Shown here: in pieces, positions 9,208 to 63,054 of the stretch
Position numbering within the stretch: the first letter of the stretch is position 1
How the letters are laid out: each line of letters starts with the position of its first letter
Assembly (NCBI GenBank): GCA_963769935.1
Contig: CAVYNY010000020.1
Coordinates: 192,001-256,000 of the forward strand
Origin: an uncultured delta proteobacterium
GTDB taxonomy: Bacteria > Desulfobacterota > Desulfobacteria > Desulfobacterales > JAFDCJ01
DNA length: 64,000 bases
Direction of reading: 5' to 3'
The notes under the pieces: model-generated
What the model was told of the DNA's origin: nothing
Databases searched by the model: none
Seen by the model: only the letters and a program-made list of their open reading frames with translations
Made by a program: the position numbers and the translations under genes

Positions 9208-9434
9208 AAATCCCAAATTCAAAAGCTCAAATCCGAAACAGTCTCCAAAATTCGATGACTTAATCCGATCCGCTTGTCTCTGACTTTCAACATTCGCTCT
9301 GAGTTCAAATCAAGGAAACACACCCTCGGCCTAAGCTCGGGTCGAATGCTTGCGATAGGCCAAAACTTGTTTGGAGCATTGGTGCTTTGAATTTGGATTT
9401 TGTTTGTTATTTGTGATTTGGAGCTTGTAATTTT
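9208..9434. repeat. Inverted-arm element, family A (CAAAT-rich heptamer arms), copy 1
   Basis: Left arm aaatcccaaattcaaaagctcaaatcc..., right arm ...tttgtttgttatttgtgatttggagcttgtaattt; homologous to 10016 and 37120. Confidence 0.7.
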
Positions 9435-9515
9435 CTATTTTCAAAGATTCTGGTTAGATATCCTGTTCTACTTGTTTTATTTCATTCCCGGGACGCCGCA
9501 CCAGAATCGAACCCA

Positions 9516-9908
9516 TCAAGTAACCGTGATAACCGGGCAGGGAGCGCTCAGGATGACAAACTGAGCATTGGAACCGAACACCAATTTGCCGACTTTCGAC
9601 CTTTTTTTCACTCCGATAACGATTTCGTCAATGTTGTTGTCCTGCGCAAACTCAACCAGATATTCCCCGGGGCTGAGAAAGCTGACCGATGCGCTGGTTT
9701 CGCAAACAAGATCATTGATGTTATGGGTTCTTTTTAATTTCTCCAGTTTGTCTTCGGCCGCTTCGATATCATCTTTTTGCAGCTGGGGGCTTTGTTCCAG
9801 GACGGTAACGATAAATAAATCGGCATTAAAAGCTCTGGCTTGTTGCAAGGCGACCTGCAAAGCTTCCTCAGCTACCTTGGATTCTTCATAACCCACTAAA
9901 ATCTTCAT
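9516..9908 (-). CDS. Universal stress protein (Usp family)
   Basis: MKILVG start; IVIG...GKLVFGSNAQFVILSAPCPVI. Confidence 0.93.
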   Translation of the reverse strand: MKILVGYEESKVAEEALQVALQQARAFNADLFIVTVLEQSPQLQKDDIEAAEDKLEKLKRTHNINDLVCETSASVSFLSPGEYLVEFAQDNNIDEIVIGVKKRSKVGKLVFGSNAQFVILSAPCPVITVT

Positions 9909-10015
9909 TTTGACCTCCCTTGCCTATATAATGAAACCTATCGAAATTAAGGTGGCTGTCGTGTCAAATCGCCTGAAGCTAAAAAATTAGGAGCAATGCA
10001 TAGCCGGCAGAGTAT

Positions 10016-10230
10016 AAATTCCAAATTCCAAGCACCAAATAACAAATAAATCTCAAATTACAATAATCAATGACCGAAGCCGGCCAAACCAAGAGAATCC
10101 GGCTGGTTACTTTTTCCGTGCACTCTTTATTGTCAGAAGCGGTGACCAAAACAGATGCAGTCCGGTTTGGAATTTTAAATTTTGGTCATTGTTATTTGTT
10201 TGGAATTTGCTATTTGGAATTTGTGATTTT
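10016..10230. repeat. Inverted-arm element, family A, copy 2
   Basis: aaattccaaattccaagcaccaaataacaaataaatctcaaattacaataatcaatgacc ... ggtcattgttatttgtttggaatttgctatttggaatttgtgattt. Confidence 0.8.
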
Positions 10231-11686: not shown

Positions 11687-11849
11687 TTAGGGTTCACAAA
11701 AAAATTAATTCACAGTTTTAGGCGCTGAGGCGCTCTTGCGGCAAGGCGCGAAAACGCAGGAATATCCGGATATTCCGAGCTTTCGCAACGCAGCCGCAAG
11801 AGATGCATCGGCGTATAAAATGTGAAGTTATTTCTGAGTGAGCCCTTAG
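11687..11849. mobile_element. ~163-bp MITE-like element, copy 1
   Basis: Imperfect terminal inverted repeats ttagggttcac...gtgagccctta; near-identical inverted copy at 23388-23550. Confidence 0.8.
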
Positions 11850-11858
11850 TTTGGCCTT

Positions 11859-12098
11859 GAAGGGAAGTAGGCAGATAGCCAGAAGGCTTGGAAGCTGGGA
11901 GGCTCAGAGGCTGGAATGCTCGAAAGCCGGTCAGGACAAAATCTCTTCTTGTTTCCGAATTTCTCAACTTCCAACCCTCACAGCCGCCAATACTCCAGGC
12001 CTGCAAGTCTTTTAGCCTGTCGACCTTCAGGCTTCACATCTTCCCAACCTCCCGACTTCTCAACTTCTCAGCTTCCCGGCCTGTCAGCCTCCCAGCCT
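11859..12098. repeat. Inverted-arm element, family C (octamer GGAAGCTG / CAGCTTCC arms)
   Basis: gaaggcttggaagctgggaggctcagaggctgg ... cttctcagcttcccggcctgtcagcctcccagcct; abuts the MttB stop codon. Confidence 0.7.
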
Positions 12099-13548
12099 AA
12101 AGCAGTATTTCATACTTTTCCCGTATCGCCTTTTCTACGTCGGCCGGGATGTAAGCTTTTTCTTCCCGGGCCAGAATTTTTTTCGCAATCTCCCGCGCCC
12201 GTGTGCGGGCATCCTGCGAACCTTTCTCCAGCCATTTTTCCCGGCTGTCCTGATCGGCAACTCCAATGCCGTTAAAATATTCCCGGCGCATATGCGTCAA
12301 CGTGTGCGGTGAAGTAATAAATGACCCGCCGGGGCCGACCTGGTTAATGGCTTCCAATGCCAGGTGTTCATCATCCACCTGGATGCCTTGCAGGACTTGG
12401 CAGCACATGCCGATAATTTCGTCATCGATAACAAACTGCTCGTAGGCGACGGCCAGCATGGACTCCAGCATGCCGGCGGCATGGTGCACAAAGTTGGAGC
12501 CACCCATGGCCGCCAGTACGGTTGTCAGCGCTTTTTCCCAGGCCGCCTGCGCGTCCGGGATTTTAGCATCGGTCAGTCCGGACGAATTATAATTCGGCAC
12601 CTTTATAAAGTGCGCCAATTGGTGGATGGCGGCATTCATCATCCCGCACTCAACCGCTCCGCCCAGGTAGCCCAGGCTGCGCAGATTGGCCCGGCCGGGA
12701 ATACCACCGTACAGGACAGGTGCTCCGGGATTGGTCAGCTGGCAAATTGTAATCCCCGCCAGCTGTTCGGCGTGAAGCTGCGCCAAAGTTCCGGCCATCG
12801 TCACCGGTGAGGTGGATCCGGCCATGGGGGCGGCCGAAAGCGCCACCGGTATTCGATTGCGCACCGCTTCCTGCATGATCAAGGTCGACTGCGTGCACAG
12901 CTTCAGGGGGCTGATCGCAAAAGAAGCGATTACCGAAATAAAAGGTTTTTCCACCAGCGCCTGCTGATTTCCGGCGATCATAGACGCCAACTCCAGGACC
13001 TTGTGAAATCCTTCTTCGTTGCCGACGCCGGCCATGACATGCTTGGCGGTGGCCTTCAGGCAGGCGAAAAATGAATTGACGTCATAGGCCGCCACGGGAA
13101 TATCGGTGGGAATGCAGGGTCGCAGGAAAAAATGGATGTTGTCCAGAGCGTCCACCAGCCGCCCCAGCCGGTACAGGTCGCTCAAAGTAGTTGGGCGGGC
13201 CTGCCCGTCTTCAAGATCCAGAATTTTAACCGCCGCCCCACCTGTGCCGAGATAGACACGGTGGCGGGTCAGATCCAGATCATTTTTTCCATCACGGCTG
13301 TACAGAATCACCTGTTCCGGAGCCAGCGCGGCCTGGGACATGACCAGCTCAGGCTTGAGAAAAATTCTTGACCGTTCTCTATCTACCGATATGCCGCGGT
13401 TTTGGAGCATGTCGATAGCGGCTTCAAGGCCGGTCTCGTATTTCATCCCGGTGCTTTCCAGGATACTTAACGCAGCCCGATGGATGGCTTCGATATCTTC
13501 AGAAGACAACGGCTTATACAACCCGCCGCTGAGGCCTTTTAATGACAT
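12097..13548 (-). CDS. Trimethylamine methyltransferase (MttB) superfamily, non-pyrrolysine
   Basis: IHRAALSILE, SPL, PMAGSTSPVTMAG, GLTDAKIPDAQ, HAAGMLES, VGPGG; no in-frame amber codon. Confidence 0.92.
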   Translation of the reverse strand: MSLKGLSGGLYKPLSSEDIEAIHRAALSILESTGMKYETGLEAAIDMLQNRGISVDRERSRIFLKPELVMSQAALAPEQVILYSRDGKNDLDLTRHRVYLGTGGAAVKILDLEDGQARPTTLSDLYRLGRLVDALDNIHFFLRPCIPTDIPVAAYDVNSFFACLKATAKHVMAGVGNEEGFHKVLELASMIAGNQQALVEKPFISVIASFAISPLKLCTQSTLIMQEAVRNRIPVALSAAPMAGSTSPVTMAGTLAQLHAEQLAGITICQLTNPGAPVLYGGIPGRANLRSLGYLGGAVECGMMNAAIHQLAHFIKVPNYNSSGLTDAKIPDAQAAWEKALTTVLAAMGGSNFVHHAAGMLESMLAVAYEQFVIDDEIIGMCCQVLQGIQVDDEHLALEAINQVGPGGSFITSPHTLTHMRREYFNGIGVADQDSREKWLEKGSQDARTRAREIAKKILAREEKAYIPADVEKAIREKYEILL

Positions 13549-16334: not shown

Positions 16335-16415
16335 ATCACGAAAACACGAAATATAGAAATCACGAAATTTATCTTTTAACCTTTTCGTGTTTTCGTCCTT
16401 TCGAGCTTTCGTGAT
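16335..16415. repeat. Short inverted-arm element (CACGAAA / TTTCGTG arms)
   Basis: atcacgaaaacacgaaatatagaaatcacgaaa ... tttcgtgttttcgtcctttcgagctttcgtgat. Confidence 0.7.
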
Positions 16416-34709: not shown

Positions 34710-35031
34710 AATGAATGGATTCGATTTTAATTTCTTTAAGTAGACAGGATTTACAGGATGAACAGGATCTTTTCAAGGTTTCCGGATGAAACCGTGAAAA
34801 CAGCAACCGCCTTCCGGCGCAGTATTGGGCGCTACGTGACTAAGATCAAGGATACCCTATTTATTGATGAACGAAATGCTATTCAAATCTGGGACAACAC
34901 TGAAGCTTCTACATTTTCCGCGAAGCGGATTATCTATTTCCGGTTTCCTCCGGAAACCGGAAATTAAAAATATCCCAACAATCCTGCAAATCCTGTCTAT
35001 TTTTAAAAAATAAAACCAGAATCCATTCGTT
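34710..35031. repeat. Inverted-arm element (ACAGGATTT / AATCCTG arms) with outer gaatggattc inverted repeat
   Basis: aatgaatggattc...tagacaggatttacaggatgaacaggat ... aatcctgcaaatcctgtcta...gaatccattcgtt; preceded by a 19-bp tandem duplication at 34672-34709. Confidence 0.72.
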
Positions 35032-35060: not shown

Positions 35061-36945
35061 TCATGCCGCTAACCCGGGATGATCCTGACTGAATTTGATT
35101 CCCAGTTCGGCCAGTTTGGCCGCCGTCGGCCGGCCCTGCGCGTCCCATCCCATGACGCTGTAAAATTTCTTTCTCATGGGTTCCATCCACTCCGACGGTT
35201 TGGACGGCGCCTGACCGGAATTGTACTCTTTGTCAAAAAACATATCCGGCAGACGATCATCGGCCGCGCCGACGCCGCAGCGCAGGTTAAAGAGCCTTTC
35301 GGTGTTGACGATTCTCTCCCCCGCGGCAAAAAGATCGGCCACTGCAACCGGCTCTCCGGTCAGAGCCGCCGCCAGTTCCGTCTCGGCCACCAGGTCATAG
35401 GCGCAGATGAGGGATAAGGCCGGGACTTTGCATATGCCGAGGCTGTCCATCACCGTGCCGACAATCATGGCCTTTCGAACCAGTTCGGCTTTGCCGTGGA
35501 TGGATTTGAGATCGGAGGCCTTGGGTGTTCCGAACTCCTCGCCGGGCTCGTCCGGCATCCATTTATGTTCCAGCGCGGAGTAGACGTCGTTAAAATCCGC
35601 TCCACGGCTGGCAACCGTATATCCCAGGGCCGTACCCATCATGTTGTCCGGATGATAGCCGGACAGCCCAAGCCCTTTGACATGCGCGGCATAGTATTCG
35701 GATCCTCGCCCGATGATCTGGGCGGCCCGGCGCACGCCTTTGCCAAGCACGGCGCCGAACCCTTGGCCTGAGGCCATCTGTCTGATCAACGCCTCCATTG
35801 AGTTCCCGTTGCCCCAGGCCAGGTCCAATCCGCCGGTATCTTCCAATGTCAGAATATGGCGGTCAAAGAGATCCATGACAAAGGAAATGACGTTGCCGGC
35901 TGAGATATTGTCGATCCCCAGCCGGGAGCAAAGGTTGTCCAGGTAGACCAGGGTGTCCAGATCGGTCAAGCCGCATTTGGCCCCCAGCGACAGCATGGGT
36001 TCGAACTCGGGCCGGAAGACTTTTTCACCCTTGAGCCGGCCGCTGGTAAATTTCAGTTCAGCCTTGCATTGAACGGGGCATCGAAAACAGCCGCGCGACC
36101 GGGTGACCTTGTCCGTCAGATTTTTCCCGTCAATTCGATCCGCAGCCTCAAAGGTATTGGTCCGAAAATTGCGGGTAGCAATAATGCCCAGGTCATCCGC
36201 CCATTTGACGTAGCCGGCTCCCCCGTGCGTTTTAAATGTTTTAAATTCGCGGCGAATTTTTTATCTGCCGGGCATAGCGGATGACGGCTTCATTATCCGT
36301 CACCGGGACCGGAATCGGTTTCGGGGGGTTTTGTCCTTTGATAACAACGGCCTTCAGGTTTTTAGACCCCATGACCGTACCCATGCCGGTGCGTCCGGCG
36401 GCATGATCGCCGTCCGACATGATGCAGCCGAACAGCACGCCGTTTTCGGCGCCCGGACCGATGGTCAAAATCCTTAATTTTTGGCTGCCCAGCATGGTTT
36501 TAAGCTGCTCGTCGGTTTGTCGGGTGTCCAGCCCCCAGAGCGATTCGGCGCTGCGGATTTCAATCGTATCGCCGTCGATCAACAAGTAAACCGGCTTCGG
36601 TGCCTTGCCGCGGATAATCAGGCTTTGAATGCCGCCGGCGCGCAGCTGGGCGCCGAAGGCGCCTCCGATATTCGAGCTTCCCAGGATGCCGGTCAAGGGG
36701 GAACGGGCATTGAGGTGCAGCCTGGAGGAGGAGGGCGCCGCGGTTCCGGTCAGCAGACCGCAGGAAAACATGAGAATGTTCTCGGGCCCGAGGGGATCGC
36801 AATCTTGCGGCAGATTCGCATAAAGATACTGGACATTGAAGCCCCGGCCGCCGAGATACTTCCAGGTCAGCTCGGCGGGGAAAGGCTTGAATTCCCAGGC
36901 TCCCGTACTCAGATCGATTTTAAGAATGCGCCCCAAAAATGCCAT
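35061..36945 (-). pseudogene. Aldehyde:ferredoxin oxidoreductase (tungsten AOR family), one frameshift at ~36249 (possibly a sequencing error)
   Basis: YLGGRG, SPLTG, IGPGAEN, GRTGMGTVMGSKNLKA; CFRCPVQC and EFE in the shifted frame; DSLGIC, DDRLP; removing 1 nt gives 627 aa. Confidence 0.85.
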
Positions 36946-37119: not shown

Positions 37120-37335
37120 AAAATTCCAAATTTCAAGCACCAAATTCCAAATAAATTTCAAATCCCAATATCCAATGACCGAAACATTCATCAGAGTTGT
37201 ATCGTATCCGCTTCTAAACCCAGGTCTGCCGTTGATCTTTCCATTAGATACAATCGTCAAATGATTATTTGTTTGGAATTTTGAATTTCGGTGATTGGTA
37301 TTTGTTTGGAATTTGGTTTTTGGAGCTTGGAATTT
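37120..37335. repeat. Inverted-arm element, family A, copy 3
   Basis: aaattccaaatttcaagcaccaaattccaaataaatttcaaatcccaatatccaatgacc ... ggtgattggtatttgtttggaatttggtttttggagcttggaattt. Confidence 0.8.
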
Positions 37336-37401
37336 GTCATAACCTCATACTGATTATTTGACTTCGAGCACTTTTATTAGGGACCTAACGCTTAATTCTA
37401 C

Positions 37402-38937
37402 CTACTTTAATTTTCCAACCTTCTTTTCCACTGCGGCCAGTATCTTGCCGCTGCACATCAGCTCCCGCATGGCGGTGATGTCGTGTGACAGGATGCGATC
37501 GCAGTCCAGATTAGGAATCACCTCGCGGATGACGCGGTAGGCTTCCATGGTGCCCTCACCGGGTTTCAGGTTGGTGAAAAGGTCCAGGGCCTGGGCGGCG
37601 CACAGAAGTTCGATGGCGACCACATCCCGGGTATTGTTTACCACCTCGCGGCACTGGCGGGCTGCGATAGTGCCCATGGAGACATGGTCTTCCTTGTTGG
37701 CCGAGGTGGGGATTGAATCCACGCTGGCCGGATGGCAGAGCACCTTGTTTTCAGACACCAGGGCCGCCGCCGTGTACTGGGCGATCATAAAACCGGAATT
37801 AAGCCCGCCGTCGCCGACCAGAAAGGCCGGCAGTCCGCTCAGCATGGGATTGACCAGCCGCTCGATTCGACGCTCGGAAATATTGGCCAGTTCGGCAACG
37901 GCCATGCTCAGAAAATCCATGGCCAGAGCCACCGGCTGCCCGTGAAAGTTGCCGCCCAGCAAAAAGTCCTGGGTTGCGGCATAAATCAGCGGATTGTTGG
38001 TGGATGAATTCATCTCGGTTTCGATAACCTTGCGGCAATAGTTGACGGCGTCCTTGGTGGCGCCGTGCACCTGGGGCGAACACCTGAGGGTGTAAGCATC
38101 CTGCACCCGGCCGCAGTCCTTGTGGGAGGTTATGATTTCGCTGTTGCGGACAATTCGTTCCATGTTGTCGGCGGCCGCGGCCTGGCCGGGATGCGGCCGG
38201 ATGGCATGGATCCTGGCATTGAATTCGGTGCGGCTGCCCATCAGTACCTCGAGACTCATGGCGGACGCTATATCGATCAGCTTGGAAAAATGGACGGCGT
38301 CATTGACCGCCAAAGCGCCGATCGCGGTCATCACCTGGGTGCCGTTGACCAGCGCCAGACCTTCTGCAGCCTCCAGTTGGATGGGCTCCAGACCGCACTT
38401 GCTCAGCACCTGCTGACCGGTCATTTTCTGCCCTTTGTAAAACGCTTCACCCAGTCCGACCAGAACCAGCGCCAAATGGGCCAGGGGCGCCAGGTCGCCG
38501 CTGGCTCCGACCGAGCCTTTCTGCGGGATCAACGGGCAAACACCCCAGTTGAGAAGCGCAATCAGGTGTTCGACGGTCTCAAGGCAGATGCCGGAATGAC
38601 CGCGGGCCAGATCCTGGATTCGCAGTGCCATGACGGCGCGTACGGTTTCCTCGTTCAGCGGTTCACCGACGCCGGCTGCATGGCTCATGAGAATATTTTG
38701 CTGCAGCCGGCGCGTGTCTTTTTTGGAAATCACCACATCACTTAACGCACCGAATCCGGTGGTAACGCCGTATATGGTTCTTTCTTCCTCAACCCATTTT
38801 TCGATCAAGCGGCGGGTATCCCGCAATCTTTGTTCCGAAGCTTCGGTTAATTTGACATGCGCGCCCTGCCTGGCGATTTTGACCAGTTTCTCCAGCGTCA
38901 TGCCGTCCATGTCGATCATAATTGTTTTTGCAGCCAA
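37402..38937 (-). CDS. hutH: Histidine ammonia-lyase
   Basis: YGVTTGFG, SH specificity pair (LMSHAAG), MIO motif GASGDLAPL, QDAYTLRC, GGNFHG, EDHVSM. Confidence 0.93.
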   Translation of the reverse strand: MAAKTIMIDMDGMTLEKLVKIARQGAHVKLTEASEQRLRDTRRLIEKWVEEERTIYGVTTGFGALSDVVISKKDTRRLQQNILMSHAAGVGEPLNEETVRAVMALRIQDLARGHSGICLETVEHLIALLNWGVCPLIPQKGSVGASGDLAPLAHLALVLVGLGEAFYKGQKMTGQQVLSKCGLEPIQLEAAEGLALVNGTQVMTAIGALAVNDAVHFSKLIDIASAMSLEVLMGSRTEFNARIHAIRPHPGQAAAADNMERIVRNSEIITSHKDCGRVQDAYTLRCSPQVHGATKDAVNYCRKVIETEMNSSTNNPLIYAATQDFLLGGNFHGQPVALAMDFLSMAVAELANISERRIERLVNPMLSGLPAFLVGDGGLNSGFMIAQYTAAALVSENKVLCHPASVDSIPTSANKEDHVSMGTIAARQCREVVNNTRDVVAIELLCAAQALDLFTNLKPGEGTMEAYRVIREVIPNLDCDRILSHDITAMRELMCSGKILAAVEKKVGKLK

Positions 38938-40457: not shown

Positions 40458-40654
40458 AATCCGCACCTCCGGCTTGATAGGGTTGAGCAGGACTTAATTT
40501 TCGATCATTTTTGTATAGTTTATCGCTTGACCATTTTCAACATTTTCTTTATTGTTGATGGCAACTGCACGAGACCATATAGCAGATTCCCCGCAATCCG
40601 CTGTTCTAATGCATGTTTAATACAATCCGCATCAACCTGCGGAGATCCACGTGT

Positions 40655-40825
40655 GCCCGTTGGCCCGTCTGCCGGTCAGCCGGTTTTCATGTGGGCCGGT
40701 AAACCGAAACGGGCCGGCGAACCTGTAGGCTGACCGGGCAGCTGACTAATCGGCCGACGGGTCAACCGGATAACCGGTCAACGAGCAAACGGGCCAACGG
40801 GCCAACCGGCTAACGGAACAACCCG
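40655..40825. repeat. Inverted-arm element, family B (CGTTGGCC / GGCCAACG octamers), copy 1
   Basis: gcccgttggcccgtctgccggtcagccggtt ... aaccggtcaacgagcaaacgggccaacgggccaaccggctaacgg. Confidence 0.75.
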
Positions 40826-51825: not shown

Positions 51826-51912
51826 GGGTTTGCCGGTTGGCCCGTTTGCCGGAGTGCCGGTTTACTGAAACGGGTCAACGGGCCCACGGGCTAACGGACT
51901 AACCGACCAACG
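51826..51912. repeat. Inverted-arm element, family B, copy 2
   Basis: gggtttgccggttggcccgtttgccgg ... aacgggtcaacgggcccacgggctaacggactaaccgaccaacg. Confidence 0.72.
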
Positions 51913-56105: not shown

Positions 56106-58157
56106 ATGTCCGATAACACTGAGATTTCCAAGGCAATGAATATCCACCTGGGAGAAATTTTTGATGATTTGCCTGCCATGCCGCAATTTGTGGAAGGCAT
56201 TCGCCGCGCGCCCGCCCGGCATTTTAACCTCTCTCAAAAAGATACCGCGCTAGCCCTTAAAAATGCCCTGCGCTACATTCCTGAAAAGTGGCATCAGACC
56301 CTGGCGCCCGAGTTCCTGGAGGAGCTGCTCTCAAGGGGTCGAATTTACGGTTACCGATTCAGACCTGAAGGTACGCTCAAAGGCAAGCCGATTGAAGAAT
56401 ACCGGGGCAACTGCATCGAAGGCCAAGCCTTTCAGGTCATGATTGAAAACAACCTGGACTTTGATGTGGCCCTGTATCCTTACGAACTGGTGACCTACGG
56501 CGAAACCGGTCAGGTCTGCCAGAACTGGATGCAGTACCGGCTGATCAAGCGCTACCTGGAGGTGCTTACCCGAGACCAGACCCTGGTGATGGAATCCGGC
56601 CATCCGCTGGGCTTGTTTGCGTCATCGCCGGATGCCCCGCGGGTGATCATCACCAATGCGCTGATGGTGGGCTGCTTTGACGACCAGGACAACTGGCACC
56701 GCGCCATGGCACTGGGGGTGGCCAACTACGGCCAGATGACGGCCGGCGGCTGGATGTACATCGGCCCCCAGGGAATCGTGCACGGTACTTACAGCACCAT
56801 TCTCAATGCCGGACGGGCCAAGCTGGGGATACCCGCCGATAAAGATTTAACCGGACATTTGTTCGTATCCTCCGGGCTGGGCGGCATGAGCGGCGCCCAG
56901 GGCAAGGCCGTGGAGATTGCCAACGGGGTGGCCGTCATCGCCGAGGTCGATAAAACCAGGATTCAAACCCGGCTGGAACAGGGATGGATTAAAAAATCCG
57001 TCGAAGATCCGGCCGAAGCCTTCAAACTGGCGGCCGACCACCTGCGGGCCCAAAAGAGCATCTCCATCGCCTATTCCGGCAACGTGGTGGATCTGATCGA
57101 ATACGCGGTCAACAGCCATATTAAAATTGGTTTGCTGTCGGATCAAACGTCCTGCCACGCGGTCTACGAGGGCGGGTACTGCCCCCAGGGGATTTCGTTT
57201 GAAGAGCGCACGGAGCTGCTAAAGTCCGGCCATGCCGGCTTCAAGGAAATGGTGGACGCTACCCTGAGACGTCATTATGAATTGATTAAAATCCTGGTTG
57301 AGCGCGGGACCTATTTTTTCGATTACGGCAACAGTTTTTTAAAGGCCGTTTATGATGCCGGCGTCACCGATATCTGCAAAAACGGGAAGGATGCGCTGGA
57401 TGGATTTGTTTTACAATCCTACGTGGAAGACCTCATGGGACCCATTCTGTTCGACTACGGCTACGGTCCCTTTCGCTGGGTGTGCCTGAGCGGCAGGCAG
57501 GAAGATCTGCTCAAAACCGATCAGGCCGCCATGGCGTGCATTGATCCGGACCGCCGATTTCAGGATCGCGACAACTACATCTGGATCAGGGACGCCGCCC
57601 AAAACAAACTGGTGGTCGGCACCAAAGCCAGGATATTATACCAGGATGCCTGGGGCCGCATGACCATTGCCCTTAAATTCAACGAAATGGTGCGCACCGG
57701 AGCAATCGGCCCGGTGATGCTGGGCCGGGACCACCACGACACCGGCGGCACGGATTCGCCCTTCAGGGAAACCGCCAACATCAAAGACGGCAGCAATATC
57801 ATGGCGGACATGGCCACCCAGTGCTTTGCCGGCAATGCCTGCCGCGGCATGAGCCTGGTGGCCCTGCACAACGGCGGCGGCGTCGGCATCGGCAAGGCCA
57901 TCAACGGCGGCTTCGGCCTGGTATTGGACGGCAGTGAACGCGTGGATAACGTCATCAAAAAGGCCATCCCCTGGGATGTTATGGGCGGCGTTGCCCGCCG
58001 CGCCTGGGCCCGCAATGAAAATTCCATCGCCACCGGCATCGCCTATAATGAAATGCGCCGGGACTCGGATCATATCACATTGCCGTTTCTTACCGATGAG
58101 AGGATGGTGGAAGGCCTGGTATCGAAAGCCTTTGAAAAACTAGAAGCGAAAGGTTAG
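56106..58157 (+). CDS. hutU: Urocanate hydratase (long form)
   Basis: YGQMTAGGWMYIGPQGIVHGT, GLGGMSGAQ, DQTSCH, GRDHHD, HNGGGVG. Confidence 0.96.
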   Translation: MSDNTEISKAMNIHLGEIFDDLPAMPQFVEGIRRAPARHFNLSQKDTALALKNALRYIPEKWHQTLAPEFLEELLSRGRIYGYRFRPEGTLKGKPIEEYRGNCIEGQAFQVMIENNLDFDVALYPYELVTYGETGQVCQNWMQYRLIKRYLEVLTRDQTLVMESGHPLGLFASSPDAPRVIITNALMVGCFDDQDNWHRAMALGVANYGQMTAGGWMYIGPQGIVHGTYSTILNAGRAKLGIPADKDLTGHLFVSSGLGGMSGAQGKAVEIANGVAVIAEVDKTRIQTRLEQGWIKKSVEDPAEAFKLAADHLRAQKSISIAYSGNVVDLIEYAVNSHIKIGLLSDQTSCHAVYEGGYCPQGISFEERTELLKSGHAGFKEMVDATLRRHYELIKILVERGTYFFDYGNSFLKAVYDAGVTDICKNGKDALDGFVLQSYVEDLMGPILFDYGYGPFRWVCLSGRQEDLLKTDQAAMACIDPDRRFQDRDNYIWIRDAAQNKLVVGTKARILYQDAWGRMTIALKFNEMVRTGAIGPVMLGRDHHDTGGTDSPFRETANIKDGSNIMADMATQCFAGNACRGMSLVALHNGGGVGIGKAINGGFGLVLDGSERVDNVIKKAIPWDVMGGVARRAWARNENSIATGIAYNEMRRDSDHITLPFLTDERMVEGLVSKAFEKLEAKG

Positions 58158-58365
58158 CCCGTTTGCCAGTTGCCGGTTATCCGGTTATCCTCGCCGTAGC
58201 GGGATTTAGCCTGTCGAAAACATATTGGCTAATTGGCTAACAGGCCAACGGATTAAGGGGCCACGGGCCAACCGGCCAACCATGGCCAACGGGCTAACGG
58301 CCCAACGGCCCAACGGGCTAACGGGCCAACGGGCTAACAGGCCAACGGGCTAACAGGCGCAACCG
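58152..58365. repeat. Inverted-arm element, family B, copy 3
   Basis: ggttagcccgtttgccagttgccggttatccggttatcc ... more than ten ggc(c/t)aac(g/a) units; begins at the hutU stop codon. Confidence 0.82.
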
Positions 58366-58380
58366 ATCAAGGAGAAAAAA

Positions 58381-59286
58381 ATGTCATCGATGAAAAAGAT
58401 ATTGGAATGCGTACCGAATTTCAGCGAGGGGCGCGATCTGGATAAATTGGAAAAAATCCTGGAACCTTTGCGCGGCAAAGACGGTGTCAAGCTGTTGGAC
58501 TTTCAAAACGATGAAGACCACAACCGGGCGGTCGTTACGATCGTCGGCGAGCCCGATCCGTTGAAGGCCGCCGTCATTGAATCCATGGGGGTTGCCATCG
58601 AGGTCATCGATATGCGCCGGCATCAGGGCCAGCACCCCCGGATGGGCGCCATCGATGTGGTCCCGTTTATTCCGGTGAAAAATATCAGCCTGGAGGAGGC
58701 GGTCGATATTTCAAAGGATGTCGCCGCGAAGGCGGCCGCCAAGTACAATCTGCCGATTTATTTATATGAGAAATCCGCCTCCAAGCCCGAACGGCAAAAC
58801 CTGGCTGCCGTCAGAAAGGGTCAGTTCGAGGGCATGGCTGAAAAAATCACCCAGCCGGAGTGGAAGCCTGATTTCGGTCCGGCGCAGATTCACCCTTCGG
58901 CCGGGGTGACTGCCATGGGTGCCAGGATGCCGCTGGTGGCCTATAATGTGAATTTAGCCACCCCTGATTTTGAAATCGCCGACAAGATCGCCAGGCAGGT
59001 CCGGCACCTTAGCGGCGGTCTGCGATACTGCAAGGCGATCGGCATTGAATTAAAGGACCGGGGCCTGGTCCAGGTTTCGATGAATATGACCGACTACAGC
59101 AAAACCGCCTTATACCGCGTGTTTGAGCTGATAAAAATCGAAGCCCGGCGCTACGGCGTCAGTGTCGTGGGCAGCGAAATCATCGGCCTGGTGCCCATGG
59201 AAGCCCTGATGGACACCGCGGCCTATTACCTGGGGCTGGAGGATTTTTCCATGGAGCAGGTGCTGGAGACGAGGATATGGGAGTAG
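58381..59286 (+). CDS. ftcD: Glutamate formiminotransferase
   Basis: ECVPNFSEGR, DHNR, HPRMGAIDVVPF, QVSMN. Confidence 0.95.
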   Translation: MSSMKKILECVPNFSEGRDLDKLEKILEPLRGKDGVKLLDFQNDEDHNRAVVTIVGEPDPLKAAVIESMGVAIEVIDMRRHQGQHPRMGAIDVVPFIPVKNISLEEAVDISKDVAAKAAAKYNLPIYLYEKSASKPERQNLAAVRKGQFEGMAEKITQPEWKPDFGPAQIHPSAGVTAMGARMPLVAYNVNLATPDFEIADKIARQVRHLSGGLRYCKAIGIELKDRGLVQVSMNMTDYSKTALYRVFELIKIEARRYGVSVVGSEIIGLVPMEALMDTAAYYLGLEDFSMEQVLETRIWE

Positions 59287-59290
59287 GGCT

Positions 59291-59360
59291 GGATGCTGGA
59301 TACTGGATGCTGGATACTGGATGCTGGATGTTGGATGCTGGAAGCTTGATACCGGCTGCT
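59291..59360 (+). repeat. Heptamer tandem array (GGATGCT)x10, left arm
   Basis: ggatgct ggatact ggatgct ggatact ggatgct ggatgtt ggatgct ggaagct tgatacc ggctgct. Confidence 0.9.
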
Positions 59361-59427
59361 GGATTAAAGATGATAGATGGTCAGAATGCATACTATGAAC
59401 AAATAGAAAAGGATTAAGGGGGGAAGT

Positions 59428-59805
59428 TTGAGCTATAAGAAATTGGAAATTTGGCAGCTTGCTCATGAACTGGTTATTGACAAACATTTTATGACTCTGA
59501 ATAAGCTGCCAAAATTTGAAATGTATGAGGAAGGGGCTCAAATTCGGAAATCTTGCAAATCGGTAAAATCGACAATTGTGGAAGGCTACGGAAGGCGAAG
59601 ATACAAGCAGGAATTTATTCGTTTCCTAACTTATGCATTGGGTTCAAATGATGAAACACTTGATCATCTCGAAACACTATTTGAGACCGGTTCATTAACC
59701 GATCGCCCATTATATGAAGAGCTGCATCAGCGGATTGACCTTTTAGGGAAAAAAATAAATCTATTCATTCAATCCGTCCAAAAAAAACATATCAGCGAAA
59801 AGTGA
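59428..59805 (+). CDS. Four helix bundle protein (TIGR02436 / 23S rRNA IVP / Avd-like family)
   Basis: [46 protein letters not shown]-rich relative to neighbours. Confidence 0.9.
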
Positions 59806-59844
59806 CAATTTTTTAACTTTTTAGATCAAGCTATCAAAAATTAT

Positions 59845-59895
59845 GCACCAGCATCATCAAGTATCGAGTATCAAGCATCCAGCATCCAGCATCAA
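59845..59895 (-). repeat. Heptamer tandem array (AGCATCC)n, right arm, reverse complement of 59291-59360
   Basis: ccagcatcatcaagtatcgagtatcaagcatccagcatccagcatc. Confidence 0.85.
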
Positions 59896-59966
59896 TTCGA
59901 AAAGTGCTTGACCTTCATTGACACTAACCATACAGGAACAAATAAAACAAAATAAAGGGCAACTCC

Positions 59967-61259
59967 ATGAATGGCAACATGATCATCAAAAACGCTTCCG
60001 AGCTGGTTACCTGCAGCGGATTTGCAGCCAAAAGGGGCGCGGATATGGCCGAGCTGCACATTATTTCCGACGGCGCTGTAATCATTAAAGCAGGCAGGAT
60101 CGAGGCAGTCGGAACGACGGAAGATATTGAAGCCAAACTGGGAAAGACCGGTGCGGATTTATCCGGCTTCGATGTCATCGATGCGCAAGGCAAGGCCGTT
60201 CTGCCCGGCTTTGTCGACTCGCACACCCATTTTGTTTTCGGCGGCTACCGGGCGGAAGAATTTGCCTGGCGCCTGCGCGGCGACGGCTACATGCAGATCA
60301 TGCAGCGCGGCGGCGGAATCGTCAATACGGTAAAGGCCACTCAAAAAGCCGACGCCAATGAACTGCTGCAATCCGGTATCAAACGGCTGGACTCCATGCT
60401 TTCCTTCGGGGTCACCACGGTTGAATGCAAAAGCGGCTATGGTCTGGATAAAGATACCGAGATCAAGCAGCTTGAAGTCATCAACCACCTGGACGGCATC
60501 CACTATATCGACATCGTCCCCACTTTTCTGGGCGCCCACGCGGTGCCCGCAAACTTCAAAGGCCGGGAAGATGAGTTTATCGAATTCATGGTCGAAGAAG
60601 TCATGCCGGTGGTAGCCGAGCGCAAGTTGGCGCAGTATTGCGATATCTTTTGCGAAAAAAATGTCTTCTCCGTCGAACAGTCCCGGCGATATCTCAGTAA
60701 AGCCAAAGAAATGGGTTTCAAGCTCAAACTTCACGCCGATGAAATCGTGCAGCTCGGAGGGGCCGAGCTGGCCGCTGAACTTCAGGCGACGTCGGCCGAT
60801 CATCTGCTGCAGGCTTCCGACGAAGGCATCCGGCAAATGGCCAAGGCCGGTGTGGTGGCCATCCTGCTGCCCGGAACCGCTTTCAGCCTGAAAGAAGCCT
60901 ATGCCCGCGGGCGTTTTATCATCGACAGCAATTGTGCCGTCGCGCTGGCGACTGATTTAAATCCGGGAAGCTGTTTCACGGAATCCATTCCCTTAATATT
61001 TGCCCTGGCAACCCTTTATATGGGCATCACAACCGAGGAAGCGGTTTCAGCATTGACAATCAACGCGGCGGCCGCCCTCGACAGAGCCGATGCCATCGGC
61101 AGCCTGGATGCCGGCAAACAGGGCGACCTGGTTGTGCTCGAATATCCTTCATATAAGTTCATTCCCTATCATATCGGGGTCAGCACCGTTGAAAAGGTCG
61201 TCAAAAATGGAAATCTGGTTTTTGATAAAGAAAAAAAAGGAGGGGTGATATATTGTTGA
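59967..61259 (+). CDS. hutI: Imidazolonepropionase
   Basis: PGFVDSHTH, GGGI, KSGYGL, LGAHA, LHADE, ATDLNPG. Confidence 0.96.
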   Translation: MNGNMIIKNASELVTCSGFAAKRGADMAELHIISDGAVIIKAGRIEAVGTTEDIEAKLGKTGADLSGFDVIDAQGKAVLPGFVDSHTHFVFGGYRAEEFAWRLRGDGYMQIMQRGGGIVNTVKATQKADANELLQSGIKRLDSMLSFGVTTVECKSGYGLDKDTEIKQLEVINHLDGIHYIDIVPTFLGAHAVPANFKGREDEFIEFMVEEVMPVVAERKLAQYCDIFCEKNVFSVEQSRRYLSKAKEMGFKLKLHADEIVQLGGAELAAELQATSADHLLQASDEGIRQMAKAGVVAILLPGTAFSLKEAYARGRFIIDSNCAVALATDLNPGSCFTESIPLIFALATLYMGITTEEAVSALTINAAAALDRADAIGSLDAGKQGDLVVLEYPSYKFIPYHIGVSTVEKVVKNGNLVFDKEKKGGVIYC

Positions 61260-61870
61260 CCGATCAAAAAATTACTGATTTCTTGCAGCAAACCGCTTCC
61301 GGAACGCCCGTTCCCGGGGGAGGTTCCGTTTCCGCCTTGAGTGCGGCCCTGGGAGCAGGGCTTACGGAAATGGTGGCAAATTTGACCGTGGGCAAAAAAA
61401 ATTATGAGGCGGTTGAAGGCGAAATGAAAAAAATTTCTGAGACGGCCGCCAACCTCAGAAAAAAACTGACGGCCGAAGTCGACAATGACGCCACTGCCTA
61501 CCAGGGAGTCCTGGCGGCGTTTAAATTGCCCCAAACGACGGAAGCCGAAAAAGAAACTCGAAGCCGGGCAATTCAGGAGGCCATGAAAAATGCCGCCCGG
61601 GTGCCGCTGGGGGTAGCCTATGATGCCCTGCAGGTTATGGATCTGGCTGAAACGGTGATAAGGAGCGGCAACCGGAATGCCGTCTCAGACGGCGCCGTAG
61701 GGGCGATGATGGCACGCACGGCCGTCCGGGGCGCGTTATTTAATGTGAAAATAAACCTGGTCTCCGTGAAAGACAAAGCCTTTGTCAAAGAAATGATGCA
61801 GGAAGCAAATAAACTGGAACAGCGGGTGCAGGAGCGGGAGAAAGAGATACTGGCATATGTGAGAATATAG
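61253..61870 (+). CDS. Formiminotetrahydrofolate cyclodeaminase / methenyl-THF cyclohydrolase (FchA-like)
   Basis: PVPGGGSVSA, MVANLT, GNRNAVSD, NVKINL. Confidence 0.92.
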   Translation: MLTDQKITDFLQQTASGTPVPGGGSVSALSAALGAGLTEMVANLTVGKKNYEAVEGEMKKISETAANLRKKLTAEVDNDATAYQGVLAAFKLPQTTEAEKETRSRAIQEAMKNAARVPLGVAYDALQVMDLAETVIRSGNRNAVSDGAVGAMMARTAVRGALFNVKINLVSVKDKAFVKEMMQEANKLEQRVQEREKEILAYVRI

Positions 61871-61872
61871 CT

Positions 61873-62118
61873 GGTTGTAAGTTGTGGGTTGTATGTGGTG
61901 AGTTGTATGTTGTGAGTTGTGTGTTGTCTGTTGTGAGTTGTGAGTTGTTTGTGGGGTGTTGAATGGGCATTTATTGTTTGCTGCTAACCAGCTGTCGTGA
62001 ATTGGCTGTAGCATTCGAAGTAAAATAGCGAATACAAAAAGCCAACTTTATGCAAGCGGGTTTTTTTTCGCGGTTGAAAACCGCTCCCACCCACAACATT
62101 CAACCCACAACTTACACC
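61873..62118. repeat. Inverted-arm element, family E (GTTGTGA / CACAAC heptamers) enclosing a REP-like hairpin
   Basis: ggttgtaagttgtgggttg... versus ...caacccacaacttacacc; internal cgcggttgaaaaccgctcccac. Confidence 0.8.
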
Positions 62119-62190: not shown

Positions 62191-63054
62191 ATGCAACTAT
62201 TTTTCGAACAATTACTCAACGGCATCGCTATGGGCTCCATCTATGCCCTGATCACCTTGGGGCTGGCGCTGGTTTATGGAATCCTGCGCATCCTGCATGT
62301 GGCTCACGCCGCGATTTACACGGTTGGTGCCTACGTGGGGCTTTATTTATTTCATCTGAGCGGCAGCCTGATTGTCGGCGTGGCCGGCAGCATGGTATTT
62401 TGCGCCGTACTCGGGGTGGCCATCGAACGGTTTGTTTACTACCCGCTGCTGAAGTACCCACCCTATGTCCCCCTGATCGGCAGCATTGCCGTGATGCTGG
62501 CGATCGAAGAGCTTTGCCGTCTGATTGCCGGTCCGCAGATTTTAACCTTTCCGGCTGAATTGCCTTTTCCTGAATTTCAAATCGGCGGCATTAACATATC
62601 ATCCACTTTGATGGCGGTTTATTGTATAACGGCCGTCGTGCTGATTGTGCTCTGGTATATTACCAGTAAAACGGAGCTGGGGCTGGCCATGCGGGCGACC
62701 TCCCAGGATATTCAGATTGCCGATGCCATGGGAATCAACAGCCACATTATCATCAGCATAACCTTTGTCATCGGCTCCGCCATCGCCGCGTTGGCCGGGA
62801 TTCTGGTCGGCATATATTACAACCAGGTTTATCCGACCATGGGCGCGGTGCCGGCTTACAAAACCCTAGCCCTGATCGTTGTCGGCGGGCTGGGATCGGT
62901 TCCGGGTGCTGTCATTGCTTCCCTGCTGCTCGGCGTGGCGGAAACACTGCTCATCGGATATGCCAATATTCCATTGCCCCGGGATGCGCTGGCATTCATC
63001 GCCATGATCGGTGTGCTGATGTGGCGCTCGGAAGGACTGCTCGGGTCGCGTTAG
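62191..63054 (+). CDS. Branched-chain amino acid ABC permease, LivH-like
   Basis: NGIAMGSIYAL..LGL.LVYG, GLAMRATSQD, VVGGLGS. Confidence 0.92.
   Translation: MQLFFEQLLNGIAMGSIYALITLGLALVYGILRILHVAHAAIYTVGAYVGLYLFHLSGSLIVGVAGSMVFCAVLGVAIERFVYYPLLKYPPYVPLIGSIAVMLAIEELCRLIAGPQILTFPAELPFPEFQIGGINISSTLMAVYCITAVVLIVLWYITSKTELGLAMRATSQDIQIADAMGINSHIIISITFVIGSAIAALAGILVGIYYNQVYPTMGAVPAYKTLALIVVGGLGSVPGAVIASLLLGVAETLLIGYANIPLPRDALAFIAMIGVLMWRSEGLLGSR

Follow-up and report, generated by a model that had tools for sequence, protein, structure and literature searches.

Inverted arrays of 7-9-nt repeats at hut operon junctions of a delta proteobacterium: probable REPIN-like cassettes with non-transposase cognate proteins

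The closest described systems to the DNA reported here are the hairpins formed by repetitive extragenic palindromes (REPs), namely REPINs with their REP-associated tyrosine transposases (RAYTs), the intervening sequences of 23S rRNA that bear an open reading frame (ORF), and the heptamer arrays of Xanthomonas and Beggiatoaceae. We compared with these a set of inverted tandem-repeat pairs in the hut operon of an uncultured delta proteobacterium, which lies in a 64,000-nt stretch of contig CAVYNY010000020.1 (positions 192,001 to 256,000; hereafter called the window). REPINs and TIRtrons are miniature intergenic hairpins, each class being matched to a single-copy cognate gene with the same ends (PMC3116915, PMC3733652). 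In contrast, the arms in the window are arrays of a non-palindromic 7-9-mer, and their cognates are four-helix-bundle or GxxExxY genes and not Y1 tyrosine transposases. The 23S intervening sequences of Coxiella and Leptospira carry the same protein family (S23p, PF05635) in the loop of a long stem, and have been described as selfish (PMC4990558), whereas the window elements lie between protein genes, have tandem-repeat arms, and belong to dozens of unit families with hundreds of gene-less copies.

The heptamer arrays of Xanthomonas and Nostoc (GGGAATC; PMC4692102) and of Beggiatoaceae (TAACTGA; PMC4679880) have about four units each and form inverted pairs; their placement next to both stops and starts in Xanthomonas, and close to starts in Beggiatoaceae, is already in print. 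However, they have been read as G-quadruplex or regulatory sites with one unit per genome, and the text examined of these papers connects them with neither a cargo gene nor mobility. A table in the Xanthomonas paper places an array 6 nt 3' of bccP, overlapping the start of XCC0516, a solved four-helix-bundle protein (PMC4692102), and a general intergenic enrichment of tandem repeats has been described (PMC12418385). Elements of the IS91 family make no target duplication, and GTTC is the terIS cleavage word of IS801 and IS1294 (PMC13181058). One of our arm families sits within an IS91-like element that has a small ORF 5' of tnpA, whereas at the three hut elements of the window neither a Y2 transposase nor ori/ter ends were seen, and there were no PF04986 hits near window elements. 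Eukaryotic Foldback transposons also have terminal inverted repeats made of tandem units, and internally deleted forms are frequent; they have a DDE transposase and target duplications, neither of which was seen in the window elements. No paper linking heptamer-type arrays to four-helix-bundle or GxxExxY genes was found in the open-access literature, with subscription papers and bioRxiv supplements outside the scope of the search.

The hut cluster of the window is organised as follows, the arms being listed without strand.

56106-58157, + strand: hutU, urocanate hydratase, host gene (TIGR01228, 411 bits)
58152-58191: left arm of element 1, a degenerate octamer array overlapping the hutU stop codon (58155-58157)
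58224-58363: right arm of element 1, the left unit in reverse complement, about 16 octamers
58381-59286, + strand: ftcD, glutamate formimidoyltransferase, host gene (TIGR02024)
59288-59364: left arm of element 2, 11 heptamer units of GGATGCT type, 1 nt 3' of the ftcD stop
59428-59805, + strand: four-helix-bundle gene, cargo of element 2 (TIGR02436 / PF05635)
59852-59895: right arm of element 2, about 6 inverted heptamer units
59967-61259, + strand: hutI, imidazolonepropionase, host gene (TIGR01224)
61256-61870, + strand: fchA-like cyclodeaminase/cyclohydrolase, host gene (PF04961; NF045657 below cut-off)
61874-61952: left arm of element 3, about 11 heptamer units of GTTGTGA type, 3 nt 3' of the fchA stop
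62069-62090, - strand: REP-like GTGG-tagged palindrome within element 3 (54 such copies genome-wide)
62089-62116: right arm of element 3, short, about 4 inverted units
62191-63054, + strand: LivH-like ABC permease, host gene (the neighbour here in four relatives too)

Inverted pairs of tandem 7-8-nt arrays occupied three of the four junctions (hutU/ftcD, ftcD/hutI and fchA/livH-like). A first-pass annotation of this DNA had placed a different hairpin at almost every hut junction, each starting 0-4 nt from the stop codon; the fourth junction, hutI/fchA, is a gene overlap with no element, and the spacing holds for elements 2 and 3 but not for element 1, which overlaps the stop. Folds compared with shuffled sequence gave z scores of -3.68 for element 1 and -5.54 for element 2 (20 shuffles), and a weaker -2.21 for element 3, for which 6 of 200 shuffles folded equally well. 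No Rfam matches were found at the elements. Only the middle pair encloses a gene, an ORF of 125 codons whose product is homologous to XCC0516 (PDB 2GSC, five chains), and the REP-like palindrome in element 3 is a passenger.

These hairpins are real, and they are probably a form of miniature selfish hairpin DNA whose cognate proteins are not transposases; to the systems described above, this genome adds many orthogonal families side by side, a code that ties repeat unit to protein clade, and empty sites at the level of strains. The elements have one architecture and a fixed arm polarity, are dispersed through the genome, are polymorphic between relatives, and match in unit the clades of their cargo protein. 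We consider it probable that they are selfish cassettes of a REPIN-like kind whose cognate proteins are not transposases, and likely that the gene-less copies are non-autonomous forms.

That the elements fall outside the definitions of insertion sequence (IS), REP and CRISPR, as proposed at first pass, was borne out. They share with REPs and REPINs the extragenic inverted doublet that forms a hairpin and is scarce between divergent genes, but their arms are tandem 7-9-mers and not palindromic arms of 20-40 nt with a GTAG/CGTC tag, and they do not flank a Y1 tyrosine transposase: none of the 11 Y1 hits (PF01797) in this genome had an array within 900 nt. With respect to DDE-type IS and MITEs (miniature inverted-repeat transposable elements), target-site duplication was no commoner than expected (5/78 against a null of 7.2%, in one family with fuzzy ends), and no transposase-coding IS with the same terminal inverted repeats was found, DDE families not being searched individually. 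The IS91 combination of a Y2 HUH transposase with a zinc domain, sharp ends and no duplication was absent from the window elements, although it is present in the octamer-armed element of a related genome (G007, see below). Element 2 resembles an rRNA intervening sequence in that its long stem has a PF05635 ORF in the loop, but it lies between ftcD and hutI and not inside an rRNA gene, and Rfam detected no rRNA in the window. Units of 7-9 nt joined head to tail without spacers differ from the 23-50-nt direct repeats with unique spacers of CRISPR, and the neighbours ftcD and hutI differ from the reverse transcriptase and the template and variable repeats (TR/VR) beside which Avd lies in diversity-generating retroelements.

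Across the 8.0-Mb genome, 992 arrays of period 7, 448 of period 8 and 306 of period 9 were detected, which reduced to 1,738 non-redundant arrays (117 inside genes) covering about 71 kb, or 0.9% of the genome; on three contigs the counts were 232/112/79, and 0/1/0 after shuffling. An inverted partner (score >=14, within 900 nt) was present for 595 of the 1,738 arrays as against 88 in each of two controls, which is more than chance; the majority (1,143) had no partner at this threshold. Paired arrays yielded 444 candidate elements, and 39 unit clusters had at least 10 arrays. These counts are approximate, since the element caller yields false pairs across genes (for example, window 9386-10059) and the gene caller was home-made. 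Arm polarity was fixed within families: in 28 families the same unit strand formed the left arm in 282 cases and not in 15, while coin-flip controls gave a mean of 183 and a maximum of 203 in 10,000. Among left-type arrays, 192 of 573 lie within 5 nt after a stop (right-type, 9/555); among right-type arrays, 139 of 484 lie within 30 nt before a start (left-type, 13/502). Stop adjacency exceeds the expectation from gap length (29/73 against 7.5 expected at 40-100 nt slack). Position just downstream of stop codons, as proposed at first pass, holds for some families (within 6 nt of a stop, 45/70 GATTGAA-type and 8/17 octamer) and fails for others (CACGAAA 0/22, GGAGTATT 1/27), and the overall median of 35 nt is close to the null of 42 nt. 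Outer ends shared across families were rejected, as no 12-mer was common to more than 8 outer flanks. Nesting was seen by eye only (for example, L009 and L022), the automated count giving 4 nested and 6 crossing pairs.

All seven repeat units that had been said to share one layout were present in the window, each recurring genome-wide with 7-61 arrays, and gene-carrying and gene-less forms, as put forward at first pass, were both found. The units are not uniform heptamers, however, since two are 8- or 9-mers with mixed spacing. The gene-less elements elsewhere in the window, again without strand, are listed below.

10016-10229: CAAATTC family
11861-12098: GGAAGCTG family
16335-16413: CACGAAA family, cognate cargo GxxExxY
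34744-34996: ACAGGATTT family, cognate cargo GxxExxY
37121-37336: CAAATTC family, 3' of hutH
40650-40823: octamer family of element 1
51827-51912: octamer family of element 1

The hutH gene (window 37402-38937) is on the opposite strand, 17 kb away from the hutU-ftcD-hutI cluster, and a repeat-armed element lies behind its stop also.

Element interiors recurred elsewhere in the genome in 154 of 310 cases, as against 85 controls, and a dispersed homolog spanning both arms was found for 222 of 432 elements, mostly at 75-85% identity, with 34 best copies at >=90%. Of 444 alignment ends, 230 lay between -10 and +5 nt from an arm edge, and the families have asymmetric, stereotyped ends. Loaded and empty copies have the same polarity and, in the GATTGAA family, share their non-repeat inner ends. 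One architecture with many units, as noted at first pass, is supported; that one common generator makes the arms de novo at each site is not, since families are stereotyped dispersed copies tied to protein clades, with at least two unrelated cargo proteins.

We then compared cargo genes with repeat units. The genome holds seven four-helix-bundle genes and two GxxExxY hits, and all seven of the former are flanked by arms, of differing units. The survey of the genus covered 23 genomes and 113 loci, analysed among the matches listed, of 164 PF05635 matches. After eight loci with short flanks were dropped, paired arms were found at 91 of 105 four-helix-bundle loci, as against 15 controls. On a quick protein tree (112 columns, 21 loci without a clear unit omitted), the repeat unit is particular to each well-supported clade and is related between sister clades. 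Unit changes on the tree numbered 52, compared with a shuffled mean of 79 (minimum 73), and 39 compared with 46.7 (minimum 44) when one locus was kept per gene context. Seven clades keep their unit across at least three gene contexts, a number that short flanks may inflate. The GxxExxY genes, for which 16 of 26 loci were read by eye, carry units of 8-10 nt; one (L066) has the CACGAAA arms of the empty family in the window, and two (L078, L083) have ACAGGAT arms. Altogether, a cognate loaded gene was found for six of the seven units first noted, four with four-helix-bundle and two with GxxExxY genes. No recognised cargo other than TIGR02436 or GxxExxY was seen between arms, again with DDE families not searched individually. 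Of the 14 genomes of the genus that are rich in the GATTGAA array, 10 had the gene of that clade (with its sister clade), compared with 2 of the 9 that are poor in it (Fisher p 0.036, which is overstated because the genomes are kin), and the sole genome outside the genus with a GATTGAA-type gene was the only one of 18 with more than 20 matches. The ftcD-linked cargo gene is under purifying selection where this is measurable, with dN/dS of about 0.04-0.07 in the two computable pairs out of six, the other four being saturated.

The insertion polymorphism anticipated at first pass was found, with junctions in relatives empty, loaded, or filled with other units. The ftcD/hutI junction is 9-15 nt long in five loci (L008, L012, L015, L016, L020), while the 3' junction of ftcD carries the same gene with GGATGCT-type arms in four (L005, L007, L009, L014) and other hairpins in four more (L003, L004, L006, L011). 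Between hutU and ftcD, the junction is short in L002, L007, L011, L013 and L015 and has the octamer hairpin in L003-L006; L009 and L022 have the octamer hairpin with a different insert inside it, and L008, L010, L014 and L021 have other units. L208 and L215 have an 8-nt fchA/livH junction, and L210 one of 31 nt. A contig in run X10, 94-96% identical, joins position 59282 directly to 59967 and lacks the whole 684-nt cassette (59283-59966), and another contig has 77 other bases at this site. For the cargo gene, the two RNA runs examined represent strains that lack it or leave it uncovered. Arm length differs by whole units between close relatives, and two related metagenome contigs have, in element 1, a right arm shorter by 66 nt.

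In G007, one arm family was found on a candidate vehicle. Seven copies of an IS91-like element (97-100% identical among the six compared) have sharp ends with octamer arms close to each of them, and carry a four-helix-bundle gene (hit in six of the seven) and an IS91-type zinc/HUH transposase (PF14319, 89 bits in all 7). The left end starts at the complement of GTTC; a flanking duplication was not seen, and the target tetranucleotide was not evident at the other end. The copies, all recent, correspond to L089-L094 and L211, and the four-helix-bundle gene takes the place of the accessory ORF 5' of the transposase. L222, L223, L226, L232 and L239 repeat the gene order; in L224 and L229 arms and transposase occur but the four-helix-bundle gene does not. 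This vehicle is evidence that rolling-circle chemistry can move such cassettes, though not that it moves all of them. A motif regex found the transposase in 2 of 30 IS91 loci, and a scan of the genome collection supplied 28 loci; the survey of arms covered this IS91 lineage. The genome of the window has about three remnants of the vehicle, and on this ground IS91 was rejected as a general motor; neither of the two Y2 hits in this genome had an array within 900 nt. In an observation of its own, C13:346050-346800 of G000 is an internally deleted cassette remnant of the IS91-like type that keeps both ends of the four-helix-bundle gene only. Separately, a family of palindromic inserts of about 40 nt, common at sites in G000, interrupts two genes of the G007 element in L091, that for the four-helix-bundle protein and that for the transposase.

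Under the cassette reading, the three hut hairpins would be three families of small cassettes ended by inverted arrays of 7-9-base units. The full form would carry a four-helix-bundle or a GxxExxY gene, and the far commoner gene-less forms would spread at the DNA level, likely with help from the protein of their own family. The cognate four-helix-bundle protein, predicted to be a pentameric ring by homology to XCC0516 and Avd, may recognise its own repeat. Copying could pass through a single-stranded DNA hairpin and, like REPIN and IS91 chemistry, leave the target unduplicated. In the GxxExxY families, the enzyme that cuts would be the GxxExxY protein, a putative PD-(D/E)xK nuclease; it would be supplied in trans to four-helix-bundle families, one lineage of which is carried on the IS91-like HUH transposon. 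Loaded copies lie mainly behind a stop on the coding strand, and a need for the host transcript is the probable reason; tight operon junctions would tolerate an insert only between the stop and the ribosome-binding site, and arm length may then drift through slippage.

Several points weigh against this reading. Most loaded copies have no adjoining transposase, reverse transcriptase or nuclease, and no recognisable catalytic motif is present in the four-helix-bundle alignment. The IS91-like vehicle explains one family at most, as it has left few remnants here and also exists without the gene. Only 8 of the 222 best copies reach 95% identity, which indicates little recent copying. The target-duplication result comes from one family with fuzzy ends, and the empty allele in X10 is compatible with gain and loss alike. 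Plain linkage also yields matching between clade and unit, and several clades are confined to a single orthologous site. The genomes behind the co-occurrence counts are kin and incomplete; four array-rich ones had no match with the query and two array-poor ones had one. A cognate gene for the GTTGTGA unit was not found among the 113 loci, and one four-helix-bundle clade, with 6 loci, has no arms. The loci of this arm-less clade (L049, L060, L110, L112, L123, L124) all lie in one linked gene context, and it is possibly a domesticated copy.

The alternative that the hairpins are useful to the host, as RNA stems retained for the cutting or stabilising of operon mRNA, with RNase III processing as in 23S intervening sequences, and that the proteins are their regulators, appears unlikely. 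In its favour are the avoidance of divergent gaps (29 elements in 474 kb, compared with 321 in 1,159 kb of co-directional gaps), the long predicted stems, the conserved gene copy at ftcD and the excision of the Coxiella intervening sequence by RNase III (PMC4990558). However, coding-strand stems show no excess of G-U over A-C (332 and 323), the sense fold is better than the antisense in only 142 of 281 cases, with no advantage beyond controls, gene-less copies show no preferred orientation with respect to transcription (115 and 93), and the same junction is empty or filled with other units in close relatives. Selection of the stem at the mRNA level was rejected on the first two counts. The lack of orientation bias, of G-U excess and of target duplication point to insertion at the DNA level.

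Retroposition, in which the four-helix-bundle protein would act like Avd and pass the hairpin RNA to a host reverse transcriptase, leaving empty copies comparable to short interspersed elements, seems improbable. PF05635 and 2GSC resemble Avd (PMC10053308), which carries RNA on a reverse transcriptase (10.1101/2023.10.23.563531); the genome has 10 reverse transcriptase hits, none of them in the window, and loaded copies lie mostly after a gene on the same strand (a crude rule gives at least 77 of 106). On the other hand, only 2 of 9 reverse transcriptase loci have an array within 900 nt, neither a duplication nor a tail was seen, the stems lack a G-U excess, and GxxExxY, a nuclease, uses the same architecture. 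Linkage of arrays to RAYT or reverse transcriptase genes was looked for and not found.

Neutral litter, with arrays made by slippage, inverted partners by template switching and spread by recombination, and with small genes hitch-hiking, fits the whole-unit variation in arm length and the two thirds of arrays without a strong partner and requires no dedicated enzyme, but it is very doubtful in view of the fixed polarity of the families, their asymmetric stereotyped ends and shared interiors, the clade-specific units at unrelated sites and the co-occurrence of gene and array.

Beyond the cassette reading itself we tentatively put forward a wider proposal, which we regard as possible but rather less than probable. 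Four-helix-bundle (IVP/Avd-like) and GxxExxY proteins would be the unit-specific keys to a class of foldback-like mobile DNA that is widespread in prokaryotes and as yet undescribed, with a 7-9-nt unit for each clade and dozens of orthogonal pairs per genome; non-autonomous copies would be the source of the heptamer excess and of ORF-bearing rRNA intervening sequences, and HUH enzymes could serve as motor. Under the cassette reading itself, such families would account for the surplus of 7-9-base repeats long noted in bacteria, and the finding ties together that unexplained intergenic abundance, two families of unknown function (TIGR02436 and GxxExxY) and the rRNA intervening sequences. If the proteins do read their own unit, they would form a natural set of orthogonal short-repeat binders, and the genus, with many protein clades that each have a different unit, is a ready specificity panel for pairwise testing of binding and mobility. 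The extent of the arrays and their position at operon junctions also bear on annotation and on operon evolution.

A few further observations were made. The REP-like GTGG-tagged palindrome at 62069-62090 and its 53 other sites often form inverted pairs; 21 of the 54 lie within 150 nt of an array, and none of the 54 lies within 1.5 kb of a Y1 transposase hit. At window 11690-11850, beside a repeat-armed element, there is a separate 160-nt palindromic element with direct CCTTAG-like flanks, which we take to be MITE-like. An aldehyde ferredoxin oxidoreductase-like gene (window 35061-36945) appears as two ORFs of 234 and 311 aa with a gap. Finally, Rfam PYLIS_3 matches window 12477-12576, within the gene of an MttB-like methyltransferase, the reading frame of which is open and has no amber codon.

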